From Chrysochromulina tobinii (Eukaryota): a stretch of DNA of 39,266 nt. Below are positions 1-28,604 of the stretch, piece by piece; the stretch's first letter is position 1; the number at the start of each line of letters is the position of its first letter. Where the stretch lies: positions 1 to 39,266 of the forward strand of contig JWZX01002728.1 of assembly GCA_001275005.1 (NCBI GenBank), in the 5' to 3' direction. Made by a program: the position numbers and the translations under genes. The notes under the pieces are model-generated. The model was not told where the DNA came from, did no database searches, and saw nothing but the letters and a program-made list of their open reading frames with translations.

Positions 1-2250
1 GCCGCGCAGCAAGCTGTAGTGATCCGGCGCGCACGTGAGGCGCAGGTAAGCGTCGACCCAGTCGGGCGCCGCGGCGAACGCGGCCTCGTGCTCCGCCAGC
101 GCCTTCTGCAGGCGCTGCACCTCGACGAGGATAGGCAGCAGGTCGCCGTCGATCGAGTGCATGATCAGCTGAGACATGAGCCATGTCTTGCCCGCCGCCG
201 GGCCTGCAGTGAGCAGCGTGCATGGGCTCGCACTCGCGTGCAGGCCTTGCAGCAACACACACAGCGAGCGTGCGTCGCGCACCGCGAGCGGCTTGCCGTC
301 CGCATCGTGCCCCTCCACGCCGATGGGCACGCACTGCGTGAGCGTGTTGAGCCGGTAGCCGGAGAGGGCGTCGGGGATGAACTCGTGCTGCGCGCGTAGA
401 CAGTTAAGGTGCCACGCGCGCATGGCCGCGACCCCGGCGGCAGCGGCGGGCATCGGCGGCAGCGCGACCTTCGAGCCGGTGGCAGCCTCGGCAGCGAGCA
501 TGAGCACGGATTGCACCACGCCGACGATGCGCGCGACGTAGTCACGGTAGAGGGTGGGCACCGTGTCCTTGTCGCCCTTGCCGGTGAAGGTGGCGCGCTC
601 GATGCTGGTAACCACCTCGGCGACGCGCGTCTCGAGCTGGCCGGCGGGCGCGACGCCCGGCTCGGTGGGCTGGCCGTTGCGCAGTACGAGCACCTTGGAC
701 GGAAGCGCGTCGAGCGCCTCCCGCACGCGCGGCACCGCGCCCAGCCGCGCGAGCAGCTCGTAGCTCACGGCGTTCTCAAAGACGCACCAGCCGCGCTCGT
801 CATATGGGCGCTCATTGTACAGCGTGTCGACGCCGTCGCACAGCACGGGCCACGGCCCCGCGCGCTTGGCGTCGAGCGCCATCTCGTGAGATGCGAAGCG
901 CACGACGGGCGGGTTGCGCGTAAGCTCGAACGCGACGATGGTCCCGAAGCTGCCGAGCGTCGCGCGGACGGCAGCCTCGCCTGTCGTGGGCTTCAGCCCG
1001 AAGAGGCACAATGCACCATCGAACGCCTTCGGCCGGGGCGGAATCTCGCGCGACTGCAGCACGGTGGTGCCAACGGCGGAGGCGTACACGTCGGCCATAA
1101 CCTTGATCGCGCGACCAAAGGCGGCCCTCTCGTCGGGCGTGCGCTCCCGGTCGGGCAGGTTCTGGAAGAGCGAGGCGTAGTCCCAGAAGACGCCCTCGAT
1201 GTGCGGGTGCTCCTCGAGAGCGGCGAGCACCATGTCCAGGCGCGCGCCGTCCGGGTCGCACTCGCCGGGCGACAGCCAGCCGTGGGTGAGCGCGCCAACG
1301 CCGCGGGTGCCACGCCGGAGCAGCGCGACGGCCTCCTCCGCCGAGAGGAAGGGCGACTTTTCCGCCGGTGCGAGGAGCAGCGCCTCGAGCTCCTGCCGCC
1401 GCTTCAGCCGCCGCCCGTTTGGCTGCCGCAGCAGCCGCCGCAGCCGCCGCAGCCACGAGACACGCAGCAGCTTGATGTCGCCGGCGCGGAGCACGTCAGC
1501 GAGCCGGTCGTCGAGTCCCGAGAGGACGCGAATCATCTCCTCGGAAGGAGCGCCAATGGTCACGGTGGGCCGCGCAGCGTCGCCGTAGTCAACGTCGATG
1601 TCGTCGAGGTTGGTGTCGTCCACGTCGTCCAAAGCATTGGGCTGCGTCGAGCCAACGGACGGTTCCTCCTTACTTGCGGCGCAGCCGCCGCCTCGAACAC
1701 GCATCATCCCCGTAAGTCGCTCCCTTCCCAGCTTCGCCACCGCCGTTGCTGCCTGAGCCGCTTGCGCCGCCACTGCATTGGCGTCGTCGATATCGTCGAG
1801 GTTGGTGTCGTCGTGGGTGTCGTCGAAGTTGGGAAGCTTGTCGAAATCGTTGACTTCGAAAGTGCCCGTCTTCATCCGCTCCCTCGAGATGGTAACCGCC
1901 GCTCCCGTACCAAATGCAGCTGAGCCCAGCCAGCTTCCTTTGCTCTGGGGATGCGGCGGGGGGCTCGGACGGTCGGCAGCCTTGGAGATGAGCTTGGTGC
2001 ACAAGATGATGAAGATAAGCACGGCGGAGAATACCACGAAAAGCCAGAGGCGAGGATTAATGAGGAACCAATTCAGAACTACGAGGATGGAGAGCGCGCC
2101 GTCCTTGTCGCGGTTGAACGCATTGAAGGCCACGAGTTCCTCGATGAATCGAATGGCCGGGTCGATGAAATACCACACGGTGGCACGCGGCTTCGCCCAG
2201 TGGCTTTGCTTCATGCCATCGAGAGAGCAGTTGTGAGAGGTAAGCCCCAT
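1..2250 (-). CDS. NLR-like protein (3' part outside window): N-terminal TM segment, HET/TIR-like domain with RRM-like insert, NACHT/STAND P-loop NTPase
   Basis: Frame open from ATG at 2250 to base 1; absent from the ORF track because it has no stop in the window. Manual translation gives hydrophobic LWLFVVFSAVLIFIIL; HET-like motifs VGALTHGWLSPGECDPDG, GVFWDYASLFQ, MADVYAS, PYDERGWCVFE and ATFTGKGD..V..LY; and Walker A TLLTAGPAAGKTWL (~184-220) followed by LLPILVEVQRL. Confidence 0.8.
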   Translation of the reverse strand, partial: MGLTSHNCSLDGMKQSHWAKPRATVWYFIDPAIRFIEELVAFNAFNRDKDGALSILVVLNWFLINPRLWLFVVFSAVLIFIILCTKLISKAADRPSPPPHPQSKGSWLGSAAFGTGAAVTISRERMKTGTFEVNDFDKLPNFDDTHDDTNLDDIDDANAVAAQAAQAATAVAKLGRERLTGMMRVRGGGCAASKEEPSVGSTQPNALDDVDDTNLDDIDVDYGDAARPTVTIGAPSEEMIRVLSGLDDRLADVLRAGDIKLLRVSWLRRLRRLLRQPNGRRLKRRQELEALLLAPAEKSPFLSAEEAVALLRRGTRGVGALTHGWLSPGECDPDGARLDMVLAALEEHPHIEGVFWDYASLFQNLPDRERTPDERAAFGRAIKVMADVYASAVGTTVLQSREIPPRPKAFDGALCLFGLKPTTGEAAVRATLGSFGTIVAFELTRNPPVVRFASHEMALDAKRAGPWPVLCDGVDTLYNERPYDERGWCVFENAVSYELLARLGAVPRVREALDALPSKVLVLRNGQPTEPGVAPAGQLETRVAEVVTSIERATFTGKGDKDTVPTLYRDYVARIVGVVQSVLMLAAEAATGSKVALPPMPAAAAGVAAMRAWHLNCLRAQHEFIPDALSGYRLNTLTQCVPIGVEGHDADGKPLAVRDARSLCVLLQGLHASASPCTLLTAGPAAGKTWLMSQLIMHSIDGDLLPILVEVQRLQKALAEHEAAFAAAPDWVDAYLRLTCAPDHYSLLRG

Positions 2251-2926
2251 CGCAGCCTCACGCGTCCACTGAGTGCCATGGGCTATGAAATCGGCGGTGA
2301 AAGCGCCGCTGCTTACCGTGGCTGCTGCCGCAGCAAGCGACGAGTTGTCGCGCTGCGGGGATGAAAAACGGGCCTGAGTGGCATTATCGCCAGCCAAGCT
2401 GACCATTGGGGTCGAAACCCTGCCAACGAGCCGATCGAGTCGAGTGGAGACCGTCAAGAGCGCGAGGAGAAAGCTGTACGCCATTCTCCCTATTCACACC
2501 TCTACGTTTTCCCCCTTCACAAAATGAGAAAAGGAGGGCCGGGAGCGACGAGCGTGCCGAGTCAGAGGAAACATCTCGTCTTATGTTAAGCTGACAGCAC
2601 GAATCACGAAATCAACATCTCGCGCCGTCTCGCACCTCTTCTCAAATCAAGTGTCCGTCTCACACGCGCAAGTCTCCGCCGCAGCGTCCCGCGCCGTCCA
2701 CAGCGACCGTCCACAGCTGTATCTAGACGAGCAACCTTCCTGTCAAGAACTCCGTCTGGTCCGCACTCCGGCCTCGCGCCGTGTGGCGTCGATCTCGCTC
2801 TATCTCCTCATCCCCATCGAAAGTCGTCATCTCGTCGCGATCTCATCTCGTCGCGATCCGCTCGCGTTCTTCTCTTCATCCGCCCCAAATATGGCAAGCT
2901 CAGAGTCCGCCCCAAATATGGCAAGC

Positions 2927-5900
2927 TCAGAGTCCGCGCACCTTGCCCTTCATCGCGCGCGCGAGGATCTCGATGCCGTGGTTGTCGCGGATCGCCTCGA
3001 GCAGATGAGCATTCTTGGCGAGTCGGCCGAGGGCGATCGCGGCGTTCTTCTGCGGGCCGTCCTTGCCATTGTGCGCGATGGCAAGGAGTGGCGGCACGAT
3101 CGGGAGCACCGCGAGCACCGCGAGACACTTGTCATTCTTGGCGCACTCGGCGAGGCACAGGGCGGCGTTGCCCTGCATCCCGGTATCCGAGCGCTGCAGC
3201 AGCTTGACCAGGGCTGGCAGCCCGCCGTGGTCGCACAATGCGAGGGCGCCGCGCTCGTGCGCCGCACACGCAGTCAGGATACGCAGCGCCGAGCCCACCT
3301 GGCATGCAGGAGGCCTTCAGAGGTCAATAGAGGTCCATCAGAGGTCATCAGAGGTCATCAGGAGTCCATCAGAGGTCCATCCCAGGCTGCCCGAATCCCT
3401 CCGAGATCGCCATCTCCGAGATCGCCATCTCCGAGATCGCCATCTCCGAGATCGCCATCTCCGAGATCGCCATCTCCGAGATCGCCATCTCCGAGATCGC
3501 CATCTCCGAGTCACTCCGGGCGCGTGGGTCGGTGCGTACCATCTCTTCCGCTGCCGCCGCCGCACTCTCCGCCTGCTCCTCCTCCTCCTCCGCCGCGTCC
3601 GCCGCCCCAGGCGCAATCTCGACGATCCGAGGTGCGTTCGAGATCGCCTCGTGCGACACGCCCTCCTCGACGAGCGCCTTGACGAGTGCGACGAGCACCG
3701 GGGAGCCAAGCAGCCGCTCGACGACCGTTGGAAGGCGCGCCGCGCACCTGTGTGGGGAAGCGACGGCGCCGTGGTGAGCACATGCATGCTCGGACGGGGC
3801 TCAGCCGTTGGAAGGCGCGCCGCGCACTTGGCGAGGATTCCCGCCGCGCGCCGCGCGAGCACCGGCGGCGAGCCGCCCGCGACGGCGCCCGGCGCCGTCG
3901 TGAGCGCCGTCTCGAGCCGCGGGATGAGCGCATCGGCCATCTCCTCGGTGGCGATGAAGCCAATGGCGTCCGCACTCAGCGAGCAGTTGTGCAGGGCCGC
4001 GAGCGCGTTCGGGAGCAAGATTTGCTCCGAGTGCGCCGCGTCGTGCTGGGCACCCCCCTTGGGGAGTGAGCTCACGCATTTGAGGAGCCCGTGGAGGGCG
4101 GGGCCGTCGATGATCAGAGTGCGAAACTTGGAGTGGGCCGACAGGTTGCCCAGCGCCGTCGCCGCCTGGGAGCGCATGCAATGAGAGTGGTCATCAGTGG
4201 ACCTCGAGGGTCATTAGGGAGGGTCATCAGTGGGCCGACAGGCTGCCCAGTGCCGTCGCATGCAAGGAGAGTGGTCATCAGGCTGCCCAGTGCCGTCGCC
4301 GCCTCCTCTGGTGAAGGTGACACACAGCGGCACTCAGCGGCCATCAGAGGCACTCGGCGACTATCAGTGGCACTCAGCGGCCATCGGCGTCATGATAAGC
4401 GTCGTCAGCGTCATCATGAGCGGCCATCAGCGTCATGACGAGCGTCATCAGCGTCATGATGAGCGGCCATCAGCGTCACTCCAGATGCATCTCCGCGCAC
4501 CTGCTCAGCCAGCGAGACCGATTTCGAAGTGACGTGTGTGCCCAGCGCCGCACACAACGGCTTCGCGAACGGGAGCAACTCAAGTTTCGTCCGCGCGCTA
4601 CCGGTACACAGGGCGGCAATGAGCCCGACGGCGGCGACGACGGCCTCGGCCGCGGCCGCCTTGTCAGCTCCCGAGGCCGAGATGGCGGTGGGTGGCGCGC
4701 CGGCGCCGTTTGGTTTGGCAGCAGCCGCGGCGGCAGCGGCAGCGGCGCCGGGGGGCGTCATGATGGCGAGAAGTCTCTCATAGGTGCCTTCACCTGATGA
4801 GGGAGGCAATCAGGGGAGGTGATCAGGGGAGGTGATCAGGGGAGGTGATCAGGGGAGGTGATCAGGGGAGGTGATCAGGGGAGGTGATCAGGGGAGGTGA
4901 TCAGGGGAGGTGATCAGGGGAGGTGATCAAGAGGTTCACCTGCAGCAAGCCGTCGCGTCTCCGTCGCCACGGTCTCGTGTGAACAGTTGAATGCGAGCAG
5001 CTTCAGCTGAGGTGCGAGCGCTAAGAGAGACGCCGGTGGAGGTGCCGCCGCCGCCGCCGCTCCCGCGCCTGCCGCCGCGCCCGCCGCCGCGCCCGCCGCC
5101 GCGGGCACGCTCACCACAGCGCTCACAAGCCTGCGGAGCTCGCGAAGGATTTGGGTGGTGCCTCCACAGACATGTACCTAATTAGGGAGAGGAGGGCGCC
5201 GTGGTGAGCACTTGCATGCCGAGAGGATTTGGGTGGTGCCTCCACAGACATGTACCTCGAGCTGATTGCGCCGCTCGAGGGAGCAGACGACCAGGAGCTG
5301 TGCGAGCTGGCCACCCCAGTGATAGAGCTCCGCGCTCGCCTCGGCGCGCCCGAGACGGCGCAGGTCCTGATGAGGGACGCAATCGATGCTCATCAGTCGC
5401 AGTGGTGATCCGTGGCCATCATCAGTCGTCATCAGTCGCCATCATCAGTCGCCGTCATCAGTCGACGTCATCAGTCGTCATCGGGGAAGCACTCACCTCC
5501 CGTCATCAGCCGTCATCAGTCGTCATCAGGGGAGATCTCACCTCCCGACCCGTCGCGCTCGCCTTCGCCTTCGCCCCCACCGTCCCCTTCCCCGCCACAT
5601 TCTCCTTCCCCTCCTCCACGGCCGCCGCCGCAGCCTCGTTGAGCTTGAGCGCGCGTTGGCACGTGCGCGCGAGCAGATCGAGAATGCGCTTGATCCCGCC
5701 CGCGTGACGGATGCACACACGGGCCGCAGAGGACTCGCGTGCGAGCGTACCTGATGAGGGACGCAATCAAGGGTGCCATCAGAGCCAATCCGAGCGCAAT
5801 CATGGCGCAATCATGGCGCAATCATGGCGCAATCATGGCGCAATCATGGCGCAATCGGAGCGCAATCAGAGCGCCATCAGAGGCCATCAGGCGTACTCAG

Positions 5901-7917
5901 GGAAGCGAGCGCCTTGGCGGCCGCGGCTTCGCTCTTCGTGCGAGCGACCGCCACGTTGGCAGCGCGCACTCGAGGATCTGTAACCGTCGCTGGGCCCCCT
6001 GCCTCGCCGCCGAGCAGCCGCGCTGTCGTGGGCGCCTCGCTGCCGGCCGCGGGGCCCGCGGGCTCAGCGGTGGCGGCGGCGGCGGCGGCGGCGGCGCCAG
6101 TTGCGGATTCCGCAACCGCGAGCTCCTGGTCAGCATAGTTGATGAGCACTTCGAGGGAGGACGCACCTGATGAGGGAGGCAATCAAAGCATATGAGAGGC
6201 CATGAGAGGCCATTAGGTTGATGAGCACGTCGAGGGAGGCAATCAAGGCGATGAGAGGCCATCAGGTTGATGAGGGAGGACGTTATCGAGCCTTCACATT
6301 CGGGTATTCACATTCACAGGGTGGACGTACTCGAGTCCGCGTTCGTATGGATCTGATCGAGCAGCTCGCGCACGCGACTGCGCAGCGCTTGGTGCTCGTC
6401 CGCTGCGAGCTTCGCATCCTCGCCCTTGCTCGCGCTACCCTTGCCCTCGATGGCGGCCTCCGCCTTGGCCGCTGCCAAATCCAGCTTCAGGATCGACTGC
6501 TGCCGCTTGATCTCCGCCTTCTCCGCCTCGGGCGCCATCGCGAGCGCGGTCGCCAAGTCCTCGGCCGCCTCAACGTACCTGCCGCGCTCTCCAGTTGGGC
6601 CATTAAATCGCTCTCCAGTTGGGCCATTCAAATCGCTCTCCATGGCACTCAACTCGATCGCACTCAACTGGATGGCACTCGATGGCACTGGATGGCACTG
6701 GATGGCACTGGATGGCACTGGATGGCACTGGATGGCAGTCGATGGCAGTCGATGGCAGTCGATGGCACTCGATGGCACTCGATGGCACTCGATGGCAGTC
6801 GATGGCACTCGATGGCAGTCCATCGCACTCCATGGCACTCCGTGGCACTGCATCGCACTCCATCGCAGTTGATGGGCGGCGCGACGCACCTGCCGAGCTC
6901 CGCCTGCGCGGCAGCGCGGCGCACGTATGCCTTGAGGACGGGCGGCGGCGGCGGGCGCTGCTTGATGTCGTTATCGAGGAACGTTGCGATCTCGATCACG
7001 CGAGAGCTGATGAGGGAGGCAATCCGCTCAGCACTCAGTACGGCACATCATCTTCGCAATCAATGCCCATACACGCAATCAATGCCCATCATCGCAATCA
7101 ACGCCCTTCTAACGCGCACCAGTCGTCGAGCGCCGAGAGCAAGGTTGCGTACCACGCACTCACTCGCAATCTCACTCGCAATCTCACTCGCAATCTCACT
7201 CGCAATCTCAACGCACCAGTCGTCGAGCGCCGAAAGGAAGTTGCGCAGCTTCAGGTGCGCCGCGGCGCGGTTGGCGAGCGACGTCTTGTCGCCCTTGAAG
7301 TGCTCAACAGCGCGCGAGTAGCCGGAGAGGGCCTCCGAGTACTGCCCCGCCTTGAACGCCAGGTTCGCCGCCTCGCGCTCCTTGGCACACGCGGCGATCG
7401 CACCTTTGCGCTGCTCGGTGCGCTGCTCGATGTCCTTGGCCATCGCGTCAAAGGCGCCCTGATCCTGCACGGCGGCCGGGTTGTCGGGATCGCCGAAGAG
7501 CTCCTCGTCCGGATCTTCCTCGAACAGGTCCCATCCCTTGTAGTAGTCCGAGAACGCGCGCGACCGGTTCGACTCACGGAACTCGAGCCACTTCTCACGG
7601 CGCGCCTTGCGCAGGTAGTAGCTCTCCTTGAGCTCCTGGAGCTTCTCGCGGTTGGCCTCCTTGGCCTCGTCGAGGCGCTTACGCTCGTCCACCTTCTTCT
7701 GGATCTTGGCCTGCTCCTCTGCCCGCTTCGCCGCCCGCTTCGCCTCCTTGGCCGCCGTCTCCTTGCGGATCTTCTCCTCCTTCTCGGCCGCCACCTTGTC
7801 GAGCTGGTCGATGTCGATGCTGCCGTCGGTCAGACCCTTGATCGTCTTGTTGATGTCCTCCACCTTGGACAGGAAATCGCTGAAGTCCTCTTCGTCGTAG
7901 TCGTTGCTACCGGGCAT
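2927..7917 (-). CDS. TTC12: Tetratricopeptide repeat protein 12-like (TPR + ARM repeats, axonemal dynein assembly factor), 11 exons
   Basis: Exons 7917-7217, 7006-6890, 6578-6331, 6166-5897, 5750-5542, 5366-5256, 5177-4940, 4793-4501, 4165-3828, 3747-3540 and 3298-2927 join in frame across GT-AG introns. N-terminal DFSDFLSKVEDINKTIKGL, TPR (EREAANLAFKAGQYSEALSGYSRA..LANRAAAHLKL) and C-terminal GNAALCLAECA..QKNAAIALGRLA..IRDNHGIEIL match my recollection of TTC12. Confidence 0.85.
3399..3510. repeat. 15-bp tandem repeat (CTCCGAGATCGCCAT) x7.5 inside TTC12 intron 10
   Basis: Read directly from the sequence. Confidence 0.95.
3748..3827 (-). mobile_element. Introner-like 80-nt intron: 23-nt copy of downstream exon + shared 42-nt 3' module
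   Basis: Intron starts GTGCGCGGCGCGCCTTCCAACGG, identical to the next exon start, and ends GCATGCATGTGCTCACCACGGCGCC-17nt(AG). Removal restores GILAKCAARLPTVVERLL. Confidence 0.75.
4811..4927. repeat. 13-bp tandem repeat (CAGGGGAGGTGAT) x9 inside TTC12 intron 7
   Basis: Perfect copies read directly. Confidence 0.95.
5178..5255 (-). mobile_element. Introner-like 78-nt intron: 32-nt copy of downstream exon + shared 42-nt 3' module
   Basis: Intron starts GTACATGTCTGTGGAGGCACCACCCAAATCCT, identical to the next exon start, and ends GCATGCAAGTGCTCACCACGGCGCC-ctcctctccctaattAG. Confidence 0.78.
5794..5856. repeat. 11-bp tandem repeat (GCGCAATCATG) x5.7 inside TTC12 intron 4
   Basis: Read directly. 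Confidence 0.9.
6671..6820. repeat. 10-bp tandem repeat GATGGCA(C/G)T(C/G) x15 inside TTC12 intron 2
   Basis: Read directly. Confidence 0.95.
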
Positions 7918-8178
7918 CGCGGCTCTTCTTTTGTGCACGGAGGGCCGTTGTCAATGTAGCGAAGAGCTTCACACGGGCCTTGGTTGGGGAAACTTCGCCG
8001 CTGTAACCGTCGCGACACAAACGCCTACTCTGGACGGTCTCTCAGCGTTCGGTTGCACCGCCGACGGGCGCAGTGTGGCGCCGCGTCGCTGTGAACTGCG
8101 AGTTGTGTTTATTCATAATGAACAGTGTTCGTCGCCCCCTGTGTGGCGGTCTCCTTCAAGGGGCAAGCGGGACCGACC

Positions 8179-9255
8179 ATGGCGACGCCTCTCGGCAAGC
8201 GCCCGCTCGAGCTCGATGGCTCGACGGGCTCCTCGAGCGACCAGCCCGTGCGCAAGGCGGCGCGCACCATCGACGTCGAAGACCGAATGGCTGTGCTGCA
8301 CGACATCCGTGACTCGCTGCGGTCGCTTGCGAGCAGCGGGCCGCTCACCAAGGCGCACGCGGACGTACTGGGCGCCATCGGCGTTCAGGTTTCCCTGCTG
8401 CGTGACGCCTTCACACGGGAGCAGGAGCGCATCCGCAACCGGCCCGTCTCCGAGGCGATGCTCGTCCGGACGGCGGACGTGCATGCCGACGGATCGTCGG
8501 TCTGGCACGAGGTGATTTTGCCGCCCGAAATGTTTGACCGCATCATCGGCTACCTGACGCCCAAGGAGATGGGGCGAGTCGTCTGCTTCAGCCGAGCATG
8601 GAAAGCGGCCGTCGACGCCAACGCGCACGCGCGCATCCGCGAGCTCGGCCTCGAATTAGAGCACCGGCAGAGGCTCACGATGCGCTTGCTGAGTACCCTT
8701 GAGGAGCAGATGAAGCGTGCGCCTTCTCTGCTGGCGGCTCCGCGTGGCGCCGGGCTGCAGACCTTATATGACAGCTTCGTGGATTTTGAGCCATGCGTCC
8801 TCCGTCGTCACCTCGACCAAATCGTGCCTCTGATCCCCGACCACCCTCGTGCTTGGCAAGTGCTCAAGTATTCGCGCCCGAGTGCCGAGTGGCTCGCACA
8901 GCACGTCGACTTGCTCGTCTCCGAGGTGGTGGCGCCCAAAAATGAGGATGATGATGATGATGTATGGCAAGAGCTAGCGGCTGACGCGGCCATTGGACTC
9001 TTCATTGAGCTCCCGCAGGCCATGATCGAGGCGAACGTCGCCCGGGTTCTCTCAGTACTCGACAGGCAGACGCCCCAAGATGCGCTCGAGATCAGCACTT
9101 ATCTCATCGTGCACGCCCTCAAGGACCTCTCGCCCGCGGTGCTCGCGCGCCTTCCTGGGCTGCGCGAGCGGCTCCAGCCGTTACTCGCGAGGACAGAACA
9201 CGGCATCGGAGAAATGGCTTCCGAGATCCTTTATCTCGCCAAGGCCATGATGTAA
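8179..9255 (+). CDS. F-box domain protein, intronless
   Basis: F-box motif LPPEMFDRIIGYLTPKEMGRVVCFSRAWKAAV followed by a helical C-terminal region; ATG at 8179. Confidence 0.7.
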   Translation: MATPLGKRPLELDGSTGSSSDQPVRKAARTIDVEDRMAVLHDIRDSLRSLASSGPLTKAHADVLGAIGVQVSLLRDAFTREQERIRNRPVSEAMLVRTADVHADGSSVWHEVILPPEMFDRIIGYLTPKEMGRVVCFSRAWKAAVDANAHARIRELGLELEHRQRLTMRLLSTLEEQMKRAPSLLAAPRGAGLQTLYDSFVDFEPCVLRRHLDQIVPLIPDHPRAWQVLKYSRPSAEWLAQHVDLLVSEVVAPKNEDDDDDVWQELAADAAIGLFIELPQAMIEANVARVLSVLDRQTPQDALEISTYLIVHALKDLSPAVLARLPGLRERLQPLLARTEHGIGEMASEILYLAKAMM

Positions 9256-9339
9256 TTCATTTTTTCACACACACTTCCATAAAAGAAGGCCAGGATGTAA
9301 AGACAGTGTGGATCCAAGGAATGCGCCCAACATGGCGCC

Positions 9340-10651
9340 ATGTTAGGCATGATGGGCTTCATGCTCGTGGTTCCCCATTGGCCTGCGTTGCCTGCGCACC
9401 TCGGTATCGCGCGAATTTTGCGTGGCGCAGAGCCGCAGCTGTGCATGCCGGCACACCTCTACGAGCCGTACACTCGCGCGGACGATCAGTACCTGTGGGC
9501 GCACCGAAACGAGCCAGTCGAGGTTTTGGCGGAGGCGCTCGGCCGCGGGCCCAGATCGTGCGTGGCTCGACTGAAACGGCTGCGAGACCCGAGCACTGAG
9601 GGTCACCGCCGCCTCTTTGGAGTCTGCGAGGAGGCGCTCAGCGACGCCAAGGAGACCGCGCTCCGGCCCGCGCGCGACGTGATCCAAAGGATCCTTCACG
9701 ATCCGGCACTGTCCGTGAGCGACTTTGTAGTGGGGTACCGGGACCGGTTCGAGACGGCGACGCTCGAGTGCCCCTTTGACGCGCCCAACGAGTCCATCCG
9801 CGGAAGGGAGCGCTCGATGGTCGCGGCGTTGCCAGAGCACCGTATTGAGTACTTTGTGTATCGGGGCCAGCTGATTTGGCACAAGGGCCAACGGTTGGAT
9901 GACGTCTTCGGCAGCCGCGGCGGCGCGCGTCTCAAGGACGTGATCGCCCAGCACGGCGCGTGGGAGCAAGTGCGCAAGCGCCGGCTGCGCTCCGCACGCA
10001 TGCATGCTCTGGCTGCCCTAGGAGGCTCCACTGCCAAATTAGGAAGCTTCGTTGAGAGTCTCGGGCAGGTGCGGCGCTGTGATGGGCACCGCTGGGCACT
10101 GATTGCGTCCGATGGCCTCTGCTTGACCTCCTCTGATTGACCTCCTCTGATTGCTCCAAATTTGGTAACAGGTGCTCCGTGGCGCGCTCAGTGTGGCACT
10201 GTGCGTGGAGGGGGCACTCGGCCCCCAGATGTTCGGAGCGGACGGTGGGACGTTAGGGAAATCCGGGCCTCGGATGCTCGGTGCGGACAGCGCGGACGGT
10301 GTTGGGGCGGGCGCTGTGGCTGGCGCTGCCAACACCGCCGGCGAGACGAACCCGACTGGCTCTGCGGACTTTGGTGTGGAAGAGGAGGGCGAGGCGGCGG
10401 TGATTGAGCTGGTGGCGACGCTGCCCGATCAGCACGCGACACTACGCGAAGAGCTGCTGCTTGCGTTCCGTGCGCACCTTAGTCGGCGGCGGGCTGCTGG
10501 ATCGCCTTCGAGTACTCCTCATTTGGCAGGTGGGCCTCGTCCGACTGATGCAACGGGCCTCGAACTGCGCGCGGCGGATGCGGGGGCGTTGCCGGCGGCG
10601 CGGCAACGCAGGAGCGAGAGAGATGTTCGAGTAGGTGTTGTCCGTCCATGA
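9340..10651 (+). CDS. MJ1316 (DUF504/LENG9-type RNA cyclic-phosphate-end recognition) domain protein with Myb/HTH-like module, 2 exons
   Basis: Exons 9340-10068 and 10172-10651 (GT-AG intron 10069-10171). LRPARDVIQRILHDPALSVSDFVVGYRDRF...LPEHRIEYFVYRGQLIWHKGQRLDDVFGS is the MJ1316 signature; YTRADDQYL...LAEALGRGPRSCVARLKRL is Myb/HTH-like. Confidence 0.75.
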
Positions 10652-10756
10652 TGTTCTAGCTCTAGAGGACTTGCATGCATTTGGTTCATGTTCGTGTCGG
10701 TTCGAAATCCACAACGCAAGTGCAACACGCAAGGAGTATAAACTTTCCGGATACGA

Positions 10757-12207
10757 ATGAACGCCGGGCCTGCACGTCGAGCCCGCCGCCCCTATGCAGC
10801 CACCACGACCACCGGTGCAACGGCCTTCGAGGCTGCCGCCAACACGACGTCGAGGAGCGATGACGATGATGACGATGCGCACGAGCGTGCGCACACCCGC
10901 TCGCTCTCTCGTGCTCTCCATGCGGCGGCTACACGTGACGAGGAGCGGATTGCCGAGTTGCTCGCCACACACGCTTGCCAGCACGTCTACATCGACGTCG
11001 GGAGCAATATCGGCGTGCAGCTACGCAAGCTCTTCGAGCCCGCCAAGTACCCAAAGGCCGCATCGACGCACGGCGTGTACGAGCGGTACTTTGGTCCGGT
11101 TGGCGATGCGCGCTGCGCCGTGTGCGCGATCGGCATCGAGCCAAATCCTCACCATCGGCCGAAGTTGACGAATCTGCAGCGGCGCTACCGCGCGGCCGGT
11201 GTGGGTGCGCTTGTGCTCTATGCCGCCGCGAGCGACGTCGACAGCGTGGCGCAGCTCGCGCTTGGTCATGCCGATCGGAAGGACCGGTGGGAGGACTTGG
11301 GTGCGTCGGCGAGCGAGGCATGGGCTGGGCTACGGCGCGTGGGGAATGCCAAGTCACTCACGGTGCCCGTGCGTGCGCTCGATCTCGGCCTCCACCTTGC
11401 ATGCAAGTGCTCATCACAGCGCTGCTCCCTCTCTCCACAGGTGCCCGTGCGTGCGCTCGATCTCGGCCGGGTGATCCACACGATCCATCGGCTGCTCCGA
11501 GATCGTGAGCTCGCGCGAGATTTCGAGCTCGGCCGCGAGCAGCTGCCGCCATTCGTGCAAGTTCGCGCTGGCCTGCCGGCGCTCGCCACGGCGCCACGTG
11601 CGCGCCGCACCGGCCGCATGGTGATGAAGCTCGATGTGGAGGGCCTCGAATTCGCGATCCTTCCCAGCCTTGTCCGCTCGCAGGCGCTGTGCGTGCTCGA
11701 CGCGGTGCGGATCGAGTGGCACACGCGCTTTTGGGACCGCAGGTGGCGAATAGACCTATGATTGACCTCTGATTGACCTCTGATTGACCTCTGATTGGCC
11801 TCTGATTGGCCTCTGATTGGCCTCTGATTGACCTCTGATTGACCTCTGATTGACCTCTGATTGAACTCTAATTGACCTCTGATTGACCTCTGATTGATCT
11901 CGGATTGACCTCTGATTTACCTCTGATTGACCTCTGATTGACCTCTGATCGCTTTGGGGACCGCAGGGTGGCCATGACCGCGGCGGCGGCTCGGAACTTG
12001 AGCTTGACTGACGAGGTGGGCGCCCACGCGATGGAGAGGCTCACAGAGACGATCCGGGGCAGCGTGCGCGCGATGCTACCGGCGAGCGACTGCCGCACGG
12101 TGCTGCTCGAGGCGGACGACGAGTCGTACATGCATGACCGCCAGCCGTGGCCCGTGGCGCCCATCTGCAACCGCACCGGTGGGCGAACCGAATGGGTTGG
12201 GGGATAG
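10757..12207 (+). CDS. FkbM-like (Methyltransf_21) SAM-dependent methyltransferase, 3 exons
   Basis: Exons 10757-11362, 11441-11742 and 11967-12207. Motifs HVYIDVGSNIG, AIGIEPNP, VMKLDVEGLEF, IEWH, DDESY. 5' end uncertain. Confidence 0.75.
11363..11440 (+). mobile_element. Introner-like 78-nt intron: 28-nt copy of downstream exon + shared 42-nt 3' module
   Basis: Intron starts GTGCCCGTGCGTGCGCTCGATCTCGGCC, identical to the next exon start, and ends GCATGCAAGTGCTCATCACAGCGCT-gctccctctctccacAG. The unspliced ORF shows VPVRALDLG twice. Confidence 0.78.
11760..11949 (+). repeat. 11-bp tandem repeat (GATTGACCTCT) x~17 in methyltransferase intron 2
   Basis: Read directly; minor variants. Confidence 0.95.
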
Positions 12208-15762: not shown

Positions 15763-18392
15763 TTAGTCCACGGCCCTACTCACGACCCCGAGCCCAAAGA
15801 GCGATCGCGCCGCGCACGCGCGCAGCAGGTCGTCACGTGCCGCCAGCTCGGAGAGAGCGAACCTGATGAGGGAGGCAATCGGCAGGCAATCAGAACCGAT
15901 GCAGGTCGTCACGTGGGCGGCAATCAGCAGGCAATCAGCAGGCGATGCAGAACCTGTGTCCGACTGGGAGGGCGGCAAAGGCGTTCAGAGGATCGAACAA
16001 GCCCGCCGGCGCATGCATGTACGTGAGCGTGCCCGGCCCACCCGGCATTGGCACCGACTGTGCGATTCTTCGAAGGTCCGTCGGCGGCCACTCGGGTTCG
16101 GGTTCGATGAGCTCGAGAGGGACGAGCTTGATGAGGGTGGTGGCGGCGCTGAGGGAGACGGCACGAGGGTCGCCTGATGCAATCAGGGTCACTCCAGCGA
16201 CCAGCAGTGAGATTGCAGTGAGATTGCAGTGAGATTGCAGTGAGATTGTAGTGAGATTGCTAATGCAATCAGGGGCACTCCAGTGACCAGCAGTGAGAGT
16301 CGGTGATGGCACGAGGTCATCAGTGGTCATCAGTGGTCATCAGCGCGGTCATCAGTGGTCATCAGTGGTCATCAGCGCGGTCATCAGTGGTCATCAGTGG
16401 TCATCAGCAGTGAGAGTCGGTGATGGCACGAGGGGCGCGCTCAGAGTGGTCATCAGTGGCCATCAGTGGCCATCCGTTGTCATCAGTGCTCCTCCGTTGT
16501 CATCCGTTGCCATCAGACGTCAATCAGCAGGCAATCACGTACCTCCGCCGCTCCTCGCGACCAGCTGCGCAAAAGCCGCCTCGCTCTGGGAGAAGGCGTG
16601 CCTCTGCTTGTGCCGCTGCTGCCGCATACGGCGATGCAGCTCCGCCTTCGCCACCCCCTGCTGTGAAGACACTTGAGCGCGAATGCGCGCCCAAAGCATT
16701 TCAAATCGCTGACGCCAGACGCCCAAAGCGGCGCCGTGGTGAGCGCCAAATTTGGTCATGGAGCCGTCGTGGTGAGCACCCATTGTCGTGGTCGATGGTA
16801 TTGTCGTGGCGGCATGGGCGTTGGTATTGGCGTCGGCGGCGGTCGATATTCCGATCGCCGCCAACGACGGCGCGGGCGACACGGACGGCGCGGGCGACAC
16901 GGGCGGCGCGGGTGGCATCACAGCCAGCGCTGGCGGCGCGGGCGGCGCGGGCAGCACAGACGGCATCGGCATCGGGCCGAAGGGCAGCGCCTGACGAAAC
17001 TGGCGCTCGCCAAAGCATGCGGCCCGCACCTGATGAGGGGTGCAATCAGAGGTCATCAGCGAGGCCATCAGAGAGGCCATCAGAGCGCTTGCCAATGCAT
17101 GCGGCCCCGCTCCGCTCAACACAACGTGGCATGATCCGCACCGCATTGAGTGCTGTGGTACTCAGCGATAGGTCGGCTGTCGGAATGGCAATGGTCAGAT
17201 GCAGCGAAGCGCCCGACACAGCGCCCGGCACGGCGCTCGAAACGTTGCCGCTCGCTCCGCCACCGATCGCATCGCCACTGATTGCCTCTGATTGCCCTGT
17301 GCTGATTGCTACTGATTGCCCTGTGCTGATTGCCTCTGATTGCCCTGTGCTGATTGCCTCTGATTGCCCTGTGCTGATTGCTACTGATTGCCCTGTGCTG
17401 ATTGCCTCTGATTGCCCTGTGCTGATTGCCTCTGATTGCCCTGTGCTGATTGCCTCTGATTGCCCTGTGCTGATTGCCGTTGAGTGCCCAGTGTGAGCGA
17501 CGTGGACGACCCCGCGTGGAATGTAGAGCACATCCCCCGGCCGCAGCAGCACGTCCAGCTCTGGAGGCCCGAGGCTCTCCAGCGTCAGCCGCGAGGTCCC
17601 GTCCGGTAGCCGACGGCCATCCTTGCCCGCTTGCTCGTCGGCAAAGGGGCGGCGCTGCGAGAGCGGATGGACGGTCGGCCACACTAGCCAGTGCTTCGTA
17701 CCGTGCAGCTGGACGATGAAGACGTCGTGGTCGTCGCTGTGGGGCGGCACCGTCTGGCTGCCGGGCGGCGTCAGGTAAACGTTCCCGTACGCGTAGCGGA
17801 AGTCCCGAGCCAAGCGCGCGCAGAGCTCGTGCACCCTCGGCCACAGCTTGTCGACGCGGTTGATGATGAGAGAGGCACCGCTGGCATAGGCAAGGTGGGG
17901 CGTGGCATACTCGGTCACGTGCTTCAGGTCTTGGAAGATGAGCAGCTCGGCCGAAGTTCCCGGCAGCGACGCGCGCACGAGCAACTCGTCCATCTCGTCC
18001 AGCGTGAGCGGCGCGTCATCCAGAGGGCGGGCCCTGGCCGTGCGCTGGAGCAGCACCGACTGCCGGTCAAAGTGCTCCGACAGGAAGCGCTCGGGCGTCA
18101 GTGCAGCGCCGAGCAGCTCAGCGAGCGCCTCGAACCTCGATGCGAGCGGCCGTCCCGCGACGTCGGGGACCGCGCCATTGCTTTCTCTCGATTCCATGCT
18201 GCAGGTGGCGGCGAGCGTCACGCCCGTCGGGGCGCTGAGCTGCACGCGCGCCGAGCAGCGCGATGCGGCCTGTACTTCCCAAGCCGCGGGCGAGAACACG
18301 AGCGTCGGGAGAACAAAGTTGACGAGGCGTGAACGAGACGCAACCGGACTTCCAGGAAGCACGGCAGACATTGAAGACCACCCGCACCACAT
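15763..18392 (-). CDS. JmjC/cupin-4 oxygenase, NO66/RIOX/RoxA-like, 4 exons
   Basis: NVYLTPPGSQTVPPHSDDHDVFIVQLHGTKHW, LRPGDVLYIPRGVVHVA, SLHLTI, FRQALP. Exons ~18392-17142, 17029-16543, 16173-15954 and 15862-15763. Start codon uncertain (18461, 18392 or 18371). Confidence 0.8.
17278..17477. repeat. 24-bp tandem repeat (CTGATTGCCTCTGATTGCCCTGTG) x8, in frame within JmjC exon 1 (AISTGQSE repeats)
   Basis: Read directly; translation visible in ORF 17046..18461. Confidence 0.92.
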
Positions 18393-22630: not shown

Positions 22631-23377
22631 TCATTTGCGCTGCGACAGAGCCTGGATCACCAGGGCGTCGTCCCTCACGTTCGCCGAGTCGCCCACGAGG
22701 GCAATGGCCTCCACGTAGTCGCCGAGGATTTGCGAATGGTACTGGGGGAATTCCCGGATGAGTTTCTCCTGTATTCTGTAGCTGAAGACTTCGGCCGCTG
22801 TCTTCAGCCCAATATTCTTCTTCTGCTCCGCCGCCCATTGAAGGCAGAGGAGGACGAAGGAGATGGTGCCGAGTGGCGGCTCCATCCAGTTCCACGACCA
22901 CGCGCCGACCTCGAGCCACGTGTCCGTGTCACCGTGCTCCGGAGGCTCCGCGGTGACGAAGTATTCGTTGAATGCGGACGAGGCCTGGAGGCTGAACACG
23001 AGCGGGATCGAGCCCCAGCCAACGGCTTGCGCACCGAAGATCATCACTTTGCCCGACGCGTGCACCCTGCCCAGGCCCGCCTCCGCCAAGGTGCTGATTT
23101 TGAGGAGCGTTGCGGTGGTATCCGCGTGCGAAACTCCATCCACGTACATGATCTCGCGCCGCATCATCTCACGCTTCGCATCGACGTTGCCGCTCTTCGC
23201 CATCTTGAACAGGTCGGTGTTTTCGAGCTCCGAGACGTGAGTCACCCTGTTCTTCAACATATCGGCTTCGACCACAATAGCCATCGTCCGGACGGCCATT
23301 GGGCATCGATTCAGCAGTGAGGCATCAAGCCGGCGCGGCGCGGCGCGGTAGAGAACACGGGCCGCTGACGACATCAT
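22631..23377 (-). CDS. Conserved hypothetical membrane protein (paralog A, intronless), mitochondrial-type presequence
   Basis: Shares FN.YFVTAEPP..G..DTWLEVGAWSW.WMEPPLGTISF.LLC.Q with the gene at 24954-25977; Arg/Ala/Ser-rich N-terminus. Confidence 0.8.
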   Translation of the reverse strand: MMSSAARVLYRAAPRRLDASLLNRCPMAVRTMAIVVEADMLKNRVTHVSELENTDLFKMAKSGNVDAKREMMRREIMYVDGVSHADTTATLLKISTLAEAGLGRVHASGKVMIFGAQAVGWGSIPLVFSLQASSAFNEYFVTAEPPEHGDTDTWLEVGAWSWNWMEPPLGTISFVLLCLQWAAEQKKNIGLKTAAEVFSYRIQEKLIREFPQYHSQILGDYVEAIALVGDSANVRDDALVIQALSQRK

Positions 23378-23576
23378 TCCGAATTTAGTCTCTTTTCACA
23401 CTATCTTCCCCGTTTTCCCCACAGTGGAGTCGGCCCGGCGGGGCCGACTCTCGCTCGGCGTGGAAGCCCCCATTCACAATGAGAAAGGAGGGGCTGGACA
23501 TTTTTATAGGCTCTTTCCGTACCGCCGAAGGCCCTCTTCATAGTTCATCAATTGTAGTTCATACAGATACACTTCA

Positions 23577-23663
23577 GTGAGTGAGTGAGTGAGTGAGTGA
23601 GTGAGTGAGACACAGTCACTCACTCACTCACTCACTCACTCACTCACTCACTCACTCACTCAC
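23577..23663. repeat. Inverted microsatellite (GTGA)8-GACACAG-(TCAC)12
   Basis: Read directly; the two arms are reverse complements. Confidence 0.95.
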
Positions 23664-23779
23664 TCTAGTATCTTCCACTGTCTGTACCCATATGTGCCGA
23701 TTTCCCTACTTTGGCGAACGAATTCCATGTCATCCCTTGATGTCATCAGACACAACAGTCGGCGTCGCCCGTTTGCCGT

Positions 23780-24953: not shown

Positions 24954-25977
24954 CTATCGCTTCTGCAGCAGCTTGAGGATCTCCGCGTGCTCTCGCTCGA
25001 GCTCCTCAGTGTCGTTGACCATCGCGATGCAACTCACGTACTGACGGAGCGCGGGGCCGTCGAAGCGTGCAAAGGCCGCCTGACGAGCGATCCGACGCAT
25101 CAGTCGTAATCAGACGTAATCCGACGTAATCAGACGCAATCAGTCGAAGCGTGCAAAGGCCGCCTGACGAGCGATCCGACGCAATCAGTCGTAATCCGAC
25201 GTAATCCGACGCAATCCGACGCAATCCGACGCGATCAAGACGCAATCCGCGCACCTGGCGCGCGATCATCGCAATCTGCTTCTCCTGCATCTGCTCCACC
25301 ATTGAGAGCCCTCCGATACTCATCCGCTGATCGCGCGCGAACTGGATGCACAGGAGGAAGAAGGAGATGGTGCCGAGCGGCGGCTCCATCCAGCTCCACG
25401 ACCACGCGCCGACCTCGAGCCACGTGTCCGCCTCACCCACATCGGGAGGCTCGGCGGTCACAAAGTAGTCGTTGAAGATCGATGCCGTTGTGTAGTGGAA
25501 TACGAGCGGGAGCGACGTCCAGCCCGCCACGAGCGCCGTGTAGATCGACAGCTGGTACGGCGCCTTCATGAGCATCTGGTTCTCCACGCACGCCTTCGCG
25601 ATGCCAAGCAGCTGTCCAGGCTCGCAACGCGCGCAGTTAGTGCACGTCCTGCGCGCGCGATAGAAAAGGAGGCAAGGAGGCTGACGGCTGATGGGACTCA
25701 CGATGGGTGTCGTCTCGGAGTATGCGATCCGATCGATCCTCATGATTTCGCGACGCAGCCGCTCACGCGAGGCATCGAGGTGCTCTCCTCGCTCGGAGAG
25801 GATGACGAGTTGGTCACCCGTCAAGTCGCTCACGTGGCGCGGCATTAGCTTTGCATCCTCGATCGACGGCAACGGCTTCACCCGGCGGCTGACTGGAGTG
25901 GCTGCCGTGCTCATGGTGGTCGCGCACCGTAGCGCATGTAGCGGTAGCGATCTCATGCAGCGGAGGCGTGCGAACAT
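24954..25977 (-). CDS. Conserved hypothetical membrane protein (paralog B), 3 exons
   Basis: Exons 25977-25702, 25611-25255 and 25079-24954. The last exon AAFARFDGPALRQYVSCIAMVND aligns with paralog A REFPQYHSQILGDYVEAIALVGD. Confidence 0.78.
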
Positions 25978-26126: not shown

Positions 26127-28604
26127 CTAATTAGTTTGCAGCGCGCGGCGCGCCAACCACGGCGGCGGACCCCGCCAGCTCTCAGCACTGAACTGTAGCC
26201 GAAGCGCGGCCTGGCGCTCCTCTTCGCCCATCGCCTCCCAGGCGGGCGTCTGCGCCCAGCCGTGCTCGTCGTCATTGTTCCAGCCGCTCTCGCCCGTGAA
26301 GCCGAGCTGCCGCGCATAGCCGCGCTCCACGTCGCTTAGGAAGCGCCACTCGCGGTTGAAGACCTTGCGGCGCAGATTCTCCTTGCGCTCGCGCTGCAGC
26401 CGCGCCGAGGGCAACGACGGCACCTTGGGCGGCGTCGTGAGCGCCTTCGTCGCGCCGGGACGACGCCATGCTGCCGGGTCCGTGGGCGCCGTCGTGAGCG
26501 CATTGGTCGTCGGCGGATGCGCTCGCGGCAGGGCGACCGAGGGCGGTGGGGCGGCGGCGGCCGATGCGGGCGGCGGGACGGGCGGCGCGGCGGAGGGCGC
26601 GGCGGAGGGCGCTGTGGTGGGCGCGGTTCTTGGCGCTGTGGCGGGCGCGGCGGAGGGCGCGGCTGCTAAGGAAACGCCCTTCGGCGGTCTGGGGTGTATC
26701 TCGGAGGTATCTCGCGCCGGGTTGCCCGGTTTGGGAGGGTTGCCCAATTTGGGAGGTTGCTTCAAATGGACGATCCTGGAGCTCATCGCGCCTCCGTTGC
26801 TGCTGCCATCAGGACTGCCAGCCTCGCCGGCAGCCGCGTTGCACCCCTCGCACGCCGCGCCGTGAGCAGCCCCCCCAGCAGCAGCAGCAGCGGACCCGCT
26901 CTCGCCCGCGTCGCTCGTGCCGACCCCAAGGCCTCGTAACCACTGGGCACACGGCTCCGCCCAAAACGGTTTGAGACCAAACCCATGGTCTCCGAAGTCA
27001 CGGCGTAGGTAGTGCACTCGCGTGCCTGCCGCGCGCGCCGCGGCCACGTAGGGGTCTGTGTCGGACTCGGGCGGGCATACCTGCATGCAATGAGGGAGGC
27101 CATCAGCATGCAATGAGGGAGGCCATCAGCATGCAATGAGGGAGGCCATCAGCATGCAATGAGGGAGGCACTCAGTGGGGTGGCACTCAGCGTGCAATGA
27201 GGGAGGCACTCAGCGGGGTGGCACTCAGCATGCAATGAGGGAGGCACTCAGTGGGGTGGCACTCAGCATGCAATGAGGGAGGGCACTCCGCATGCAATGA
27301 GGGTCTGTACCTCATCTGCTGTCGAGGCGACGACGAAGAGAGGCGGCGGCGCGACGAACGCGTCTCCAGCGACGAGTCTCTCCTTGCCCACCACGAGTGA
27401 CCGCACCTGCATGCAATGAGGGAGGCCATCAGCATGCAATGACGGAGGGCCATCAGCATGCAATGAGGGAGGCCATCAGCATGCAATGAGGGAGGCCATA
27501 AGCATGCGATGAGGGAGGCCATCAGCATGCAATGAGGGAGGGCCATCAGCATGCAATGAGGGAGGCCATCAGCATGCAATGAGGGAGGCACTCAGTGGGG
27601 TGGCACTCAGCATGCAATGAGGGAGGCCATCAGCATGCAATGAGGGAGGCACTCAGCATGCGATGAGGGAGGCCATCAGCATGCGATGAGGGAGGCCATC
27701 AGCATGCGATGAGGAGGCAATCAGCATGCAATGAGGGAGGCAATCAGCATGCAATGAGGGACCGCACCTGCTCTGAGTGTACGTCCGCACGCCAAAAGCC
27801 GCATGTGTCCTCGGTGAGCCAGCCGTCGGGGCAAGTGCATGGATAGATCAGCCCCAAGCCATCGGGTGTGCCCTCGCTGTCGGGTGCGGCGATGGACACG
27901 GCGCTTGCGTCGCCGCCATGGCCGCCGCTGCTGCCTCTCTGTAGACTCACACCGCTGGCTGCTGCGGCGGCGCCCGAGGCGCACACGTAGCCTCCCGCCG
28001 AGAAGCCGAACGCCACCACCGGCCCGCCGTTCGCGTGCCTGCGCGCCGCGCGCACGGCGCCGACGAAATCCGCATGCATCTGCGCCAGATCGTGCGAGGG
28101 CAGCAGCCGGTAGCGGAGGACAAAGGCGGGAACGCCGAGGGCCTCGGCGACCCAGCGCGCAATCGGCGCGCCCTCGCGCGGGTGCAGGAACTCCAGGTTG
28201 CCGCCGGGGCACACGATCGCCGCGCCCTTGCCCGCGGGCGTGCCGGCGGGTGGCAGGTACGGCAGCAGCGCGGGCGCGCCGTCGACAAAGAGGGGATCCT
28301 CTGCAAGCGGCGGGAAAGGACGCGCCTTGCCGCGCTCGTCGCTAAGCACGATCCAATCGGGCATCTCGGGCCACTTCTTGCGCTTCGCGAGAAAGCGCGG
28401 CTGCTCTGGCGTGGCCATCGGCATGCCGTCAAGATCGATCATGGGCGACTCGATGGCATTCTTGCCTGGAAGGCTCTTCTTGCGCGGTTTGGGCACCGCG
28501 CCCTTGGATGAGGCCCGCGGCGCACGAACCGGCGCAAACGCCGGCGGCGCCACGTGCAAGAGGTCGATAAGCCCGGCTAGCGCATCGAGCGAGTCTTCTC
28601 TCAT
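26127..28604 (-). CDS. Alpha/beta hydrolase (Aes/BD-FAE-like esterase) with Ala/Pro linker and C-terminal Trp-repeat module, 3 exons
   Basis: Exons 28604-27768, 27406-27311 and 27080-26127. AAIVCPGG, AFVLRYRL, GFSAGG (Ser), LIYP, STADEVC (Asp), GDHGFG (His). Confidence 0.82.
27081..27767 (-). repeat. Two introns filled with ~23-bp repeats (GCCTCCCTCATTGCATGCTGATG and variants)
   Basis: Arrays at 27081-27310 and 27407-27767, both ending CATTGCATGCAG at the acceptor. Confidence 0.92.

Follow-up and report, generated by a model that had tools for sequence, protein, structure and literature searches.

Chrysochromulina tobinii introns that join a long flanking-exon copy to a shared branch-point piece: a probable product of template switching

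The origin of new spliceosomal introns in bursts is a long-standing question, and intron-generating transposons (introners) have been described as the sole mechanism able to explain bursts of intron gain (PMC12130899). Introners leave related, multi-copy intron sequence in unrelated genes without a scar, and one splice site comes from the duplicated target. Introner duplications measure 3–9 bp and are characteristic of the family; the ends do not vary. Breaks can also be repaired with filler DNA inserted between direct repeats, for which a transposase is not needed. Such filler is unrelated DNA (e.g., mitochondrial pieces), its insertion is sporadic, and the repeats are short, reportedly 5–12 bp in the break-repair introns of Daphnia. 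The threshold for such repeats is 5 bp in one account (PMC3296678), which also includes tandem genomic duplication (the Rogers model) among the routes of intron gain; a potato case is also listed (PMC4974935). Under the Rogers model, a duplicated exon stretch yields splice sites and the protein is unchanged. The duplication is said to supply both sites, around AG|GT. Finally, in fungal introner-like elements and reverse-splicing transposition (PMC9860276, PMC11146597), intron-derived sequence multiplies into new exonic sites as whole introns, with no duplication.

The sequence studied here (39,266 nucleotides, the whole of contig JWZX01002728.1 in assembly GCA_001275005.1, hereafter the window) carries three introns for which an intron-generating element had been proposed. 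Sequence re-checking agrees that they lie in two genes on opposite strands, run from GT to AG, and measure 80, 78, and 78 nt. Intron 1 (3748–3827, minus strand) consists of an exon copy (3805–3827), a 15-nt linker, a core (3766–3789), and an 18-nt tail ending in AG; the exonic copy of its 23-nt duplication lies at 3725–3747. Intron 2 (5178–5255, minus strand) has its exon copy at 5224–5255, a 4-nt linker, the core at 5196–5219, and an 18-nt tail ending in TAG. Its 32-nt duplication has the exonic copy at 5146–5177, and the repeat also takes in the AG that precedes the donor, for a total of 34 nt. Intron 3 (11363–11440, plus strand) is made up of an exon copy (11363–11390), an 8-nt linker, the core (11399–11422), and an 18-nt tail, with the exonic copy of the 28-nt duplication at 11441–11468. 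Thus, the first 23, 32, and 28 nt of the three introns are exact copies of the start of the next exon. In all three, the 24-nt core is followed by 18 nt to the AG (the same 42-nt span), and the branch-like A of a CTCAY motif is at −28. The core matches the window three times, versus no match in 100 shuffles.

On this sequence evidence, the three introns are real as described. Splicing itself rests on protein homology because no spliced junction at these introns was found among 15 of the 171 joints listed in a comparison with contigs of sequencing runs, a comparison swamped by paralogous repeats. With the introns removed, the proteins align without gaps to haptophyte homologues at all three sites, as expected for scarless restoration. 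Retention of intron 1 would cause a frameshift and then a stop, that of intron 2 an in-frame TAG at the intron's end, and that of intron 3 would add 26 residues. Two RNA-run contigs, which may represent DNA or pre-mRNA, cover 5190–5543 unspliced. Both copies of the intron 3 repeat are covered by contigs (7181–11424 and 11395–11788) of a DNA run (X1) that may itself be the source sample.

Introns 1 and 2 interrupt a gene for a TPR and armadillo-repeat protein (2930–7917, minus strand), which we take to be TTC12-like; one homologue is labeled “unc-45 homolog B” in its source. The host of intron 3 (10757–12200, plus strand, 3′ end approximate) encodes an FkbM-methyltransferase-like protein, based on a weak Pfam match under the curated cut-off. 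Its next intron (11743–11966, plus strand) contains an 11-nt tandem array that closes with a near-copy of the end of the upstream exon, a mirror layout with another module. An 88-nt intron in an RPN7 gene (29969–30056, plus strand) starts with a 14-nt copy (one mismatch) of the next exon and has a different 3′ module. The intron at 6167–6330 (minus strand), from a second module family, starts with a degenerate 13-nt copy of the next exon that by itself falls below the significance threshold.

The expectation of further copies outside the window was borne out: We found 163 distinct strict-core matches in 142 sequences, dispersed and with few pairs that have common flanks, so that related intron sequence occurs in at least four unrelated genes, as in introners. 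The material is short-read contigs, metagenome contigs among them, or gene calls, from which 121 non-tandem copies were analyzed. Across these, the constant part is the 24-nt branch-point core alone, and direct repeats above the 99th percentile of 3000 shuffled pairs flank 99 of them. A separate module-free scan is used as a list only: Repeats persist when sequences are reversed, which leaves its reversed-sequence control uninformative, and its “other” class combines tandem arrays with opposite-strand matches. In 72 of the 121 copies (layout A), the repeat copies the downstream exon and supplies the donor; its length is 12–47 nt (median 29 nt). In 12 (layout B, the mirror form), a fixed head carries the donor and a copy of the upstream exon gives the acceptor. 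Other copies number 18, several with neither a fixed 3′ nor a fixed 5′ end, and core-only inserts occur.

Layout A introns contain an exon copy, linker, core, and tail, and nothing else. Their 3′ end is exact at AG and their 5′ end is variable, whereas layout B is the reverse, fixed at 5′ and cut at 3′. The 5′ extension in layout A is 0–69 nt, and seven of 54 extensions of at least 3 nt are suffixes of the layout B head. The core-to-AG distance is 13–38 nt with variable sequence, and just 14 of 72 copies show the 18-nt spacing of the window. Consequently, the original prediction is supported for an intron-creating insertion that is multi-copy and dispersed and whose long duplication is anchored at an exonic GT, but not for a fixed 42-nt element. 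Nor does the module always bring branch point and acceptor, as layout B brings the donor; a second, unrelated 3′ module behaves like the first, with exon copies of 18–45 nt in 14 of 44 cases (null computed without same-locus pairs). The downstream exon begins with GT in 64 of the 72 layout A copies, and the targets resemble a donor consensus, G|GTRCG, so that insertion “at any such GT” was too wide a claim. Duplication length and 5′ extension are negatively related (rho −0.54), which may reflect a minimum intron size and in part be a product of alignments that end at later mutations. The core is much better kept than the tail, a contrast inflated by the search pattern.

The present introns resemble introners in part. 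They differ in that between a third and half of the intron is duplication, neither end is fixed, a donor or an acceptor can be recruited from the target, and bases of the source exon can come along with the insert. Similarity up to both exon-intron boundaries, not into exons and with consistent boundaries, is part of the introner definition of Gozashti and is absent here: In layout A, the 5′ part differs from locus to locus, the ends vary, and in one pair of loci (L104 and L094) identity reaches into the exon. As in break repair, inserted DNA lies between direct repeats, but in this alga the filler is, time after time, part of another intron, and a family results. As in the Rogers model, the duplicated exon gives a splice site, although only one, and the imported piece gives the branch point. 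Compared with the fungal elements, partial introns are found between long duplications. The largest introner survey reports zero families for C. tobinii, and its filter demands similarity at both intron ends; the zero may be because this layout fails the introner definition and that filter. In the papers that our literature search covered, we found no description of the exon-copy and module layout. A 16-nt core motif had no occurrence in the introner-paper supplements searched (one 2022 file in part), tables that may hold no sequences.

The most informative loci are L104 and L094, which have 59 identical nucleotides in common. L094 has a Myosin_head match upstream (E 2e-15), and both ends of the common stretch are its own exon sequence. 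In L104, 6 nt at either edge are part of that locus's own 23-nt repeat; what remains is a 47-nt insert that copies the myosin-gene stretch exactly, including 7 nt of source exon past the AG. This copy thus has an identifiable source and 6-nt microhomology at both joints, the features of a templated insertion. It is one case, the single fully traced source-target pair, with the contigs from different data sets. The source exon bases exclude an excised intron or a circle as the template in this instance. Two other loci (L015 and L123) have 81 identical nucleotides, including exon-side bases, and three (L058, L087, and L132) have a common tail matching upstream exon ends, in apparently unrelated genes. 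At L094, units are repeated with different lengths, which also counts in favor of template switching.

Across the wider set, in which true sources lie mostly outside the sample, junction signals are weak. Similarity of elements and of exon starts was weakly correlated over 139 elements (rho 0.07 and 0.10; 45 and 16 of 1000 permutations), with 106 of 5000 in the nearest-neighbor form of the test. Microhomology at the 5′ joint was 2.48 nt versus 1.67 (27 loci; ∼0.4 nt of the gap is expected by chance extension), and at the 3′ joint of 13 short-tail copies the mean was 0.7 nt. Over positions −12 to −3 of the layout A re-entry point, microhomology did not exceed the shuffled level (2.86 against 2.90, n = 65). 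In culture-type contigs, similarity between neighboring copies did not exceed chance (271 of 1000 permutations); in the remaining contigs it did (0 of 1000), but differences between strains confound the comparison there.

Precise presence and absence among alleles, also anticipated, is observed directly: The site is empty at two of six allelic pairs and at intron 3 of the window. Among 27 proteins listed for the latter, 10 have the insert, 14 lack it, and three are too short. In one allelic pair (L066/L116), the intronic copy appears to keep an older exon state.

We consider it probable, if by no means assured, that these introns were made by microhomology-guided template switching in DNA repair or replication, likely with DNA or unspliced RNA as the template. 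A polymerase extending a broken end would quit the target, pair over a few bases with an intron copy already present elsewhere, and copy ∼25–75 nt of it, branch point included and in most cases one splice site as well. It would then re-enter the target ∼15–45 nt upstream, so that the stretch between exit and re-entry is duplicated. Re-entry at a donor-like G|GTRCG would let the left copy give the donor (layout A), and a duplicated stretch ending in AG would let the right copy give the acceptor (layout B). In exons, selection would retain products only if they are scarless and spliceable, and every product retained would serve as a new template; the family could therefore amplify without a transposase or fixed ends. 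The layouts, the variable ends, the empty alleles, and a single copying event from source to target are observed; we infer the polymerase (a Pol-theta-like enzyme is our guess), the choice between DNA and pre-mRNA, and the role of selection. Of the two mechanisms first suggested, templated repair is the better match, ahead of classical target-primed reverse transcription: The one traced insert has source exon sequence and microhomology at both ends. By its sequence, that insert points to a switch of template involving DNA or unspliced RNA rather than to an intron already excised or a transposon with fixed ends. Against template switching, the better-kept core could be what a dedicated enzyme recognizes.

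A reverse transcriptase supplied in trans by a retrotransposon, priming at a staggered nick and copying part of an unspliced pre-mRNA or intron RNA, is a rather unlikely source. The stagger would account for the long duplication and early termination for the variable 5′ end, and both the exact AG of layout A and the extensions that are layout B head suffixes suit it, as do the dispersal and high copy number. Long, variable target duplications are known in some non-LTR elements. Head-to-tail units (L015, L079, and L084) would be in keeping with circular introns as templates; spliceosomes can produce such circles (PMC11146597). However, layout B is cut at the 3′ end with its 5′ end fixed, and core-only inserts exist; the 3′ joints have no poly(A) or simple-repeat tail, ending in CAG or TAG or running straight into the target copy; the source exon bases of L104 exclude excised introns and circles there; and no reverse transcriptase is among the 21 window ORFs (a weak test).

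A non-autonomous transposon with defined ends, mobilized by a putative transposase that makes unusually long target duplications, seems improbable. It would explain the equal 42-nt span of the window copies, and introners without inverted repeats are present in marine Chrysochromulina MAGs. The core may also form a 5-bp hairpin whose pairing the common variants keep (pair 10–23: TG 138 and CG 12 of 151; pair 13–20: TG 124 and TA 25), but five variants break pair 12–21 and the pairing-friendly changes are ordinary transitions. The widely varying ends and duplication lengths, the latter outside the 3–9 bp of described introners and of TIR DNA transposons or MITEs, and the same layout in the second module argue against it, and the folding of whole introns is not stronger than that of shuffled sequences (z −0.1 to −1.05). 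As first noted, no terminal inverted repeats are visible at insert ends by inspection of the 121 copies. Rfam gave no match at E ≤ 1 in five loci. Searches of viral contigs gave no sign of viral carriage (one strict-core match; a looser pattern hit 59 loci, with the full core in that same contig alone). One core match in a prokaryote genome lies within a bacterial coding frame and was taken as chance.

We regard as quite improbable that local exon duplications overwrote the ends of older introns, the empty alleles being precise losses by direct-repeat recombination. Inserts at three loci (L018, L046, and L102) seem to sit at 3′ ends of existing introns (our flag for an existing upstream intron is too loose for counting), unit number differs between alleles (L039/L083), and an allele's SNP is present in both repeat copies (L089/L101). 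Repeat-copy mismatches show a third-position excess (32 of 65, p = 0.004), and therefore many copies are not new; the comparison of filled and empty alleles carries no gain-versus-loss polarity. Nevertheless, the GT starts and sparse content of layout A, homologues colinear without the insert, the excess of empty over filled alleles at intron 3, and movement between unrelated genes in L094/L104 oppose it. That duplications or empty alleles are assembly artefacts is highly improbable: The data are all short-read contigs or gene calls and a perfect 33-nt repeat (L019 versus L137) could in principle collapse, but 55 of 72 layout A repeats are imperfect, the copies in an allelic pair (L040/L043) are mismatched, filled and empty intron 3 forms each recur in at least 10 database proteins, and frame and stops fit splicing.

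Template switching thus remains our preferred account. In its fullest form, which we advance tentatively, Chrysochromulina multiplies introns without a transposon: Its own repair polymerase would copy branch-point pieces into breaks, a ∼30-nt exon duplication would supply the missing splice site, and the introns would be self-amplifying, traceable to their sources base by base, still segregating, and beyond the reach of introner pipelines. When copies are retained, gene models are corrupted, as with the 26-residue insert of intron 3 in 10 database proteins. The organism is cultured and has empty alleles, so source, direction, and enzyme are open to testing. The freshwater alga shows abundant, polymorphic gains whose anatomy unites intron copying, exon duplication, and break repair, three routes that had been proposed separately, in introns that fail the introner definition. 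If true, intron birth by DNA-repair copying would be a new large-scale route that involves no transposon.

The positions of three introns in the original prediction, 3748–3827 (−), 5178–5255 (−) and 11363–11440 (+), and the exact copies of the next exon with which they begin (23, 32 and 28 nt, respectively), were all reproduced. Each contains a common 24-nt branch-point core and then 18 nt up to the AG; this core occurs three times in the window and not once in 100 shuffles. Protein homology places introns 1 and 2 in a TPR/armadillo gene (−), which would be disrupted twice if they were retained, and intron 3 in an FkbM-like gene (+). Removal of the introns was predicted to restore the protein, and the alignments point the same way: without introns 1 and 2, the product is gap-free over both junctions relative to haptophyte homologues (10 of the 21 found were compared, and one homologue, P0007, aligns poorly in the spliced frame), and the 26 residues of intron 3 are present in one of 11 aligned relatives, and cleanly absent in eight, while two relatives diverge at this position. 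The spliced junctions of the three introns are not among the RNA-contig joints listed, a table dominated by paralogous repeats. One protein cluster that includes a product of the window is represented by a Chrysochromulina parva gene, which places the host in the parva/tobinii group of that genus.

From 163 distinct strict-core matches, we set aside 37 with a neighboring core and five near contig ends, leaving 121 copies that still include a few allelic duplicates. Of these, 99 lie between direct repeats that exceed the 99th percentile obtained from 3000 shuffled pairs. In the prevailing layout (A; 72 copies), the repeat duplicates the downstream exon and starts with GT in 64 cases and GC in three. 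It is 12–47 nt long (median 29), perfect in 17 of the 72, with 110 mismatches over the 2027 nt compared. Introns of this layout are 60–132 nt long, with a 5′ extension of 0–69 nt. A constant 17 nt between module and AG had been proposed, but the core-to-AG distance ranges from 13 to 38 nt and is 18 nt in only 14 of 72. In the mirror layout (B; 12 copies, nine above the repeat threshold), the core follows a common 30-nt head beginning with GT, and the AG comes from a duplicate of the upstream exon end. A further 18 copies carry a significant repeat that fits neither register; in some of these, little besides the core separates the two repeats. Another 19 lack a significant repeat. Target sites (n = 45) are donor-like, with G at −1 in 75% (background 29%), a purine at +3 in 93% (55%) and G at +5 in 66% (31%). 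In 52 confidently framed loci, third codon positions hold 32 of 65 copy-to-copy mismatches (p = 0.004), as expected from ordinary divergence following insertion. At three loci, L120 (−), L041 (+) and L004 (−), donor base 2 or 3 differs (the intron copy has GT, the exon copy GA or GC); hence either some events altered a codon or the donor was later tuned.

The most informative pair of core-bearing sequences, L094 and L104, shares 59 identical bases spanning linker, core, tail and 13 exon bases. L094 lies in a myosin gene (matched upstream of the intron site, which itself falls at the conserved LHIGN motif), and at either end the shared bases belong to the exons of this gene. In L104, the six outermost bases on either side fall within its own 23-nt repeat. 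On the simplest reading of these sequences, L104 would have taken 47 nt from the myosin locus, annealing at both ends. Because these include seven exon bases beyond the AG, the template could not have been an excised intron. Layout B counterparts (L015/L123 and L058/L087/L132) follow the same logic, with ~10 nt of target matching the element tail. Element similarity and exon-start similarity are weakly correlated, in agreement with annealing-guided copying; against it, general microhomology tests over the core copies were weak or negative, and a test for local copying in culture-type contigs was non-significant. We lean toward an origin by repair-type template switching, for which L094/L104 is the one fully traced source and target. 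Reverse transcription of unspliced RNA is a less likely route. Separately, the unrelated loci L118 (−) and L124 (−) carry tandem arrays, with two and three units, built on one common 24-nt spacer and core, so blocks of several units also appear to move.

Introners have target duplications of 3–9 bp (PMC9860276; 3–8 bp in a Polarella preprint), whereas the layout A exon copies span 12–47 nt. The Chrysochromulina example in PMC9860276, an introner from a marine MAG, lacks inverted repeats, brings its own donor and makes a duplication of 4 bp. The available part of PMC12130899, in which introner calling demands similarity reaching both intron ends, gives zero families for C. tobinii and, over 15 haptophyte rows, at most "10bp terminal direct repeats" in one Emiliania family. 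For intron borders at large, PMC11782384 reports nearby repeats of 4–30 bp (mean 11.4), and its accessible text mentions neither a module nor haptophytes; break repair and tandem duplication figure as sporadic routes of intron gain in PMC3296678, and the portion seen of the C. tobin genome paper (PMC4580454) mentions introns once. The exon-copy layout was not found in the literature searched, which covers few subscription journals, and the core could already stand as an introner consensus in some supplement. A transposon with fixed ends seems improbable beside the variable extensions and core-to-AG distances of layout A.

The core was found at 140 metagenome loci, in three of 64 parts of the collection, with ~3200 stretches by tool estimate, many being one strain re-assembled. 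In X1, a DNA run possibly from the same sample as the window, summed contig depth, which is not copy number, is 592 to 4589 in core bins and ~40–60 in repeat-free bins. By extrapolation, three copies per 39 kb would give thousands in a 59-Mb genome (PMC4580454). One IMG/VR contig (L001:2001–2050) ends in a core with normal tail, which may be host DNA or the flank of an integrated virus. Among six allelic pairs, two (L137/L019 and L040/L043) show exact whole-intron presence/absence, the target stretch occurring just once where the intron is missing, one differs in unit number, and three have the insert in both alleles. Among 27 intron 3 proteins listed (three clusters, the largest represented by 15 of 39 members), the insert is in 10 and absent from 14, and three are too short; because 12 of the 14 continue into the next intron unspliced, they look like genomic empty alleles, not mRNA. 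That old introns were remodeled and then lost in such alleles is slightly less probable still than a transposon, and an artefact is very improbable. One layout B intron is represented by two alleles (L089:167–252 and L101:255–340), each with an allele-specific base that is identical in both repeat copies, which suggests that repeats are re-copied from each other or that one site was hit by two insertions.

An unrelated second module, with 3′ end CCTCATCAG, has exon copies of 18–45 nt in 14 of 44 cases (69 minus 25 with repeats following), and window introns 29969–30056 and 11743–11966 are shorter or mirror versions of the exon-copy layout; the layout therefore characterizes this genome rather than a single element. 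Longer introns at 4155–4500 (−), 7007–7217 (−), 25075–25255 (−) and 34999–35265 (+) contain internal 20–40 nt near-copies of an adjacent exon end, some twice. Tandem arrays of 10–24 nt units (3399–3510, 4801–4929, 5794–5879, 6667–6875, 11753–11949, 16315–16407, 17278–17493 and 27409–27761) lie mostly within apparent introns, are commonly made up of branch-point-like words (CTGAT, CTGAC), and may be leftovers of the second module expanded by slippage. The window also holds a perfect 11-nt array (36890–37071, 16.5 copies) past a stop codon, a ~90 nt inverted repeat of facing AGTG and TCAC tetranucleotide arrays (23576–23665), a 249-nt coding duplication within an ankyrin gene (37690–38183), an ORF with an MJ1316 RNA cyclic-end recognition domain (9340–10140 (+), E 2.5e-16), and two similar ORFs, 22631–23377 (−) and 25006–25977 (−), apparently paralogues, without a Pfam match and with a common stretch near their C-termini.

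In the membership tests that could be run, the feature fell outside introners, MITEs and standard retroposons. It is real, polymorphic and introner-like in its working, and there is a fair chance that it represents transposon-free, self-templating intron gain at genome scale.
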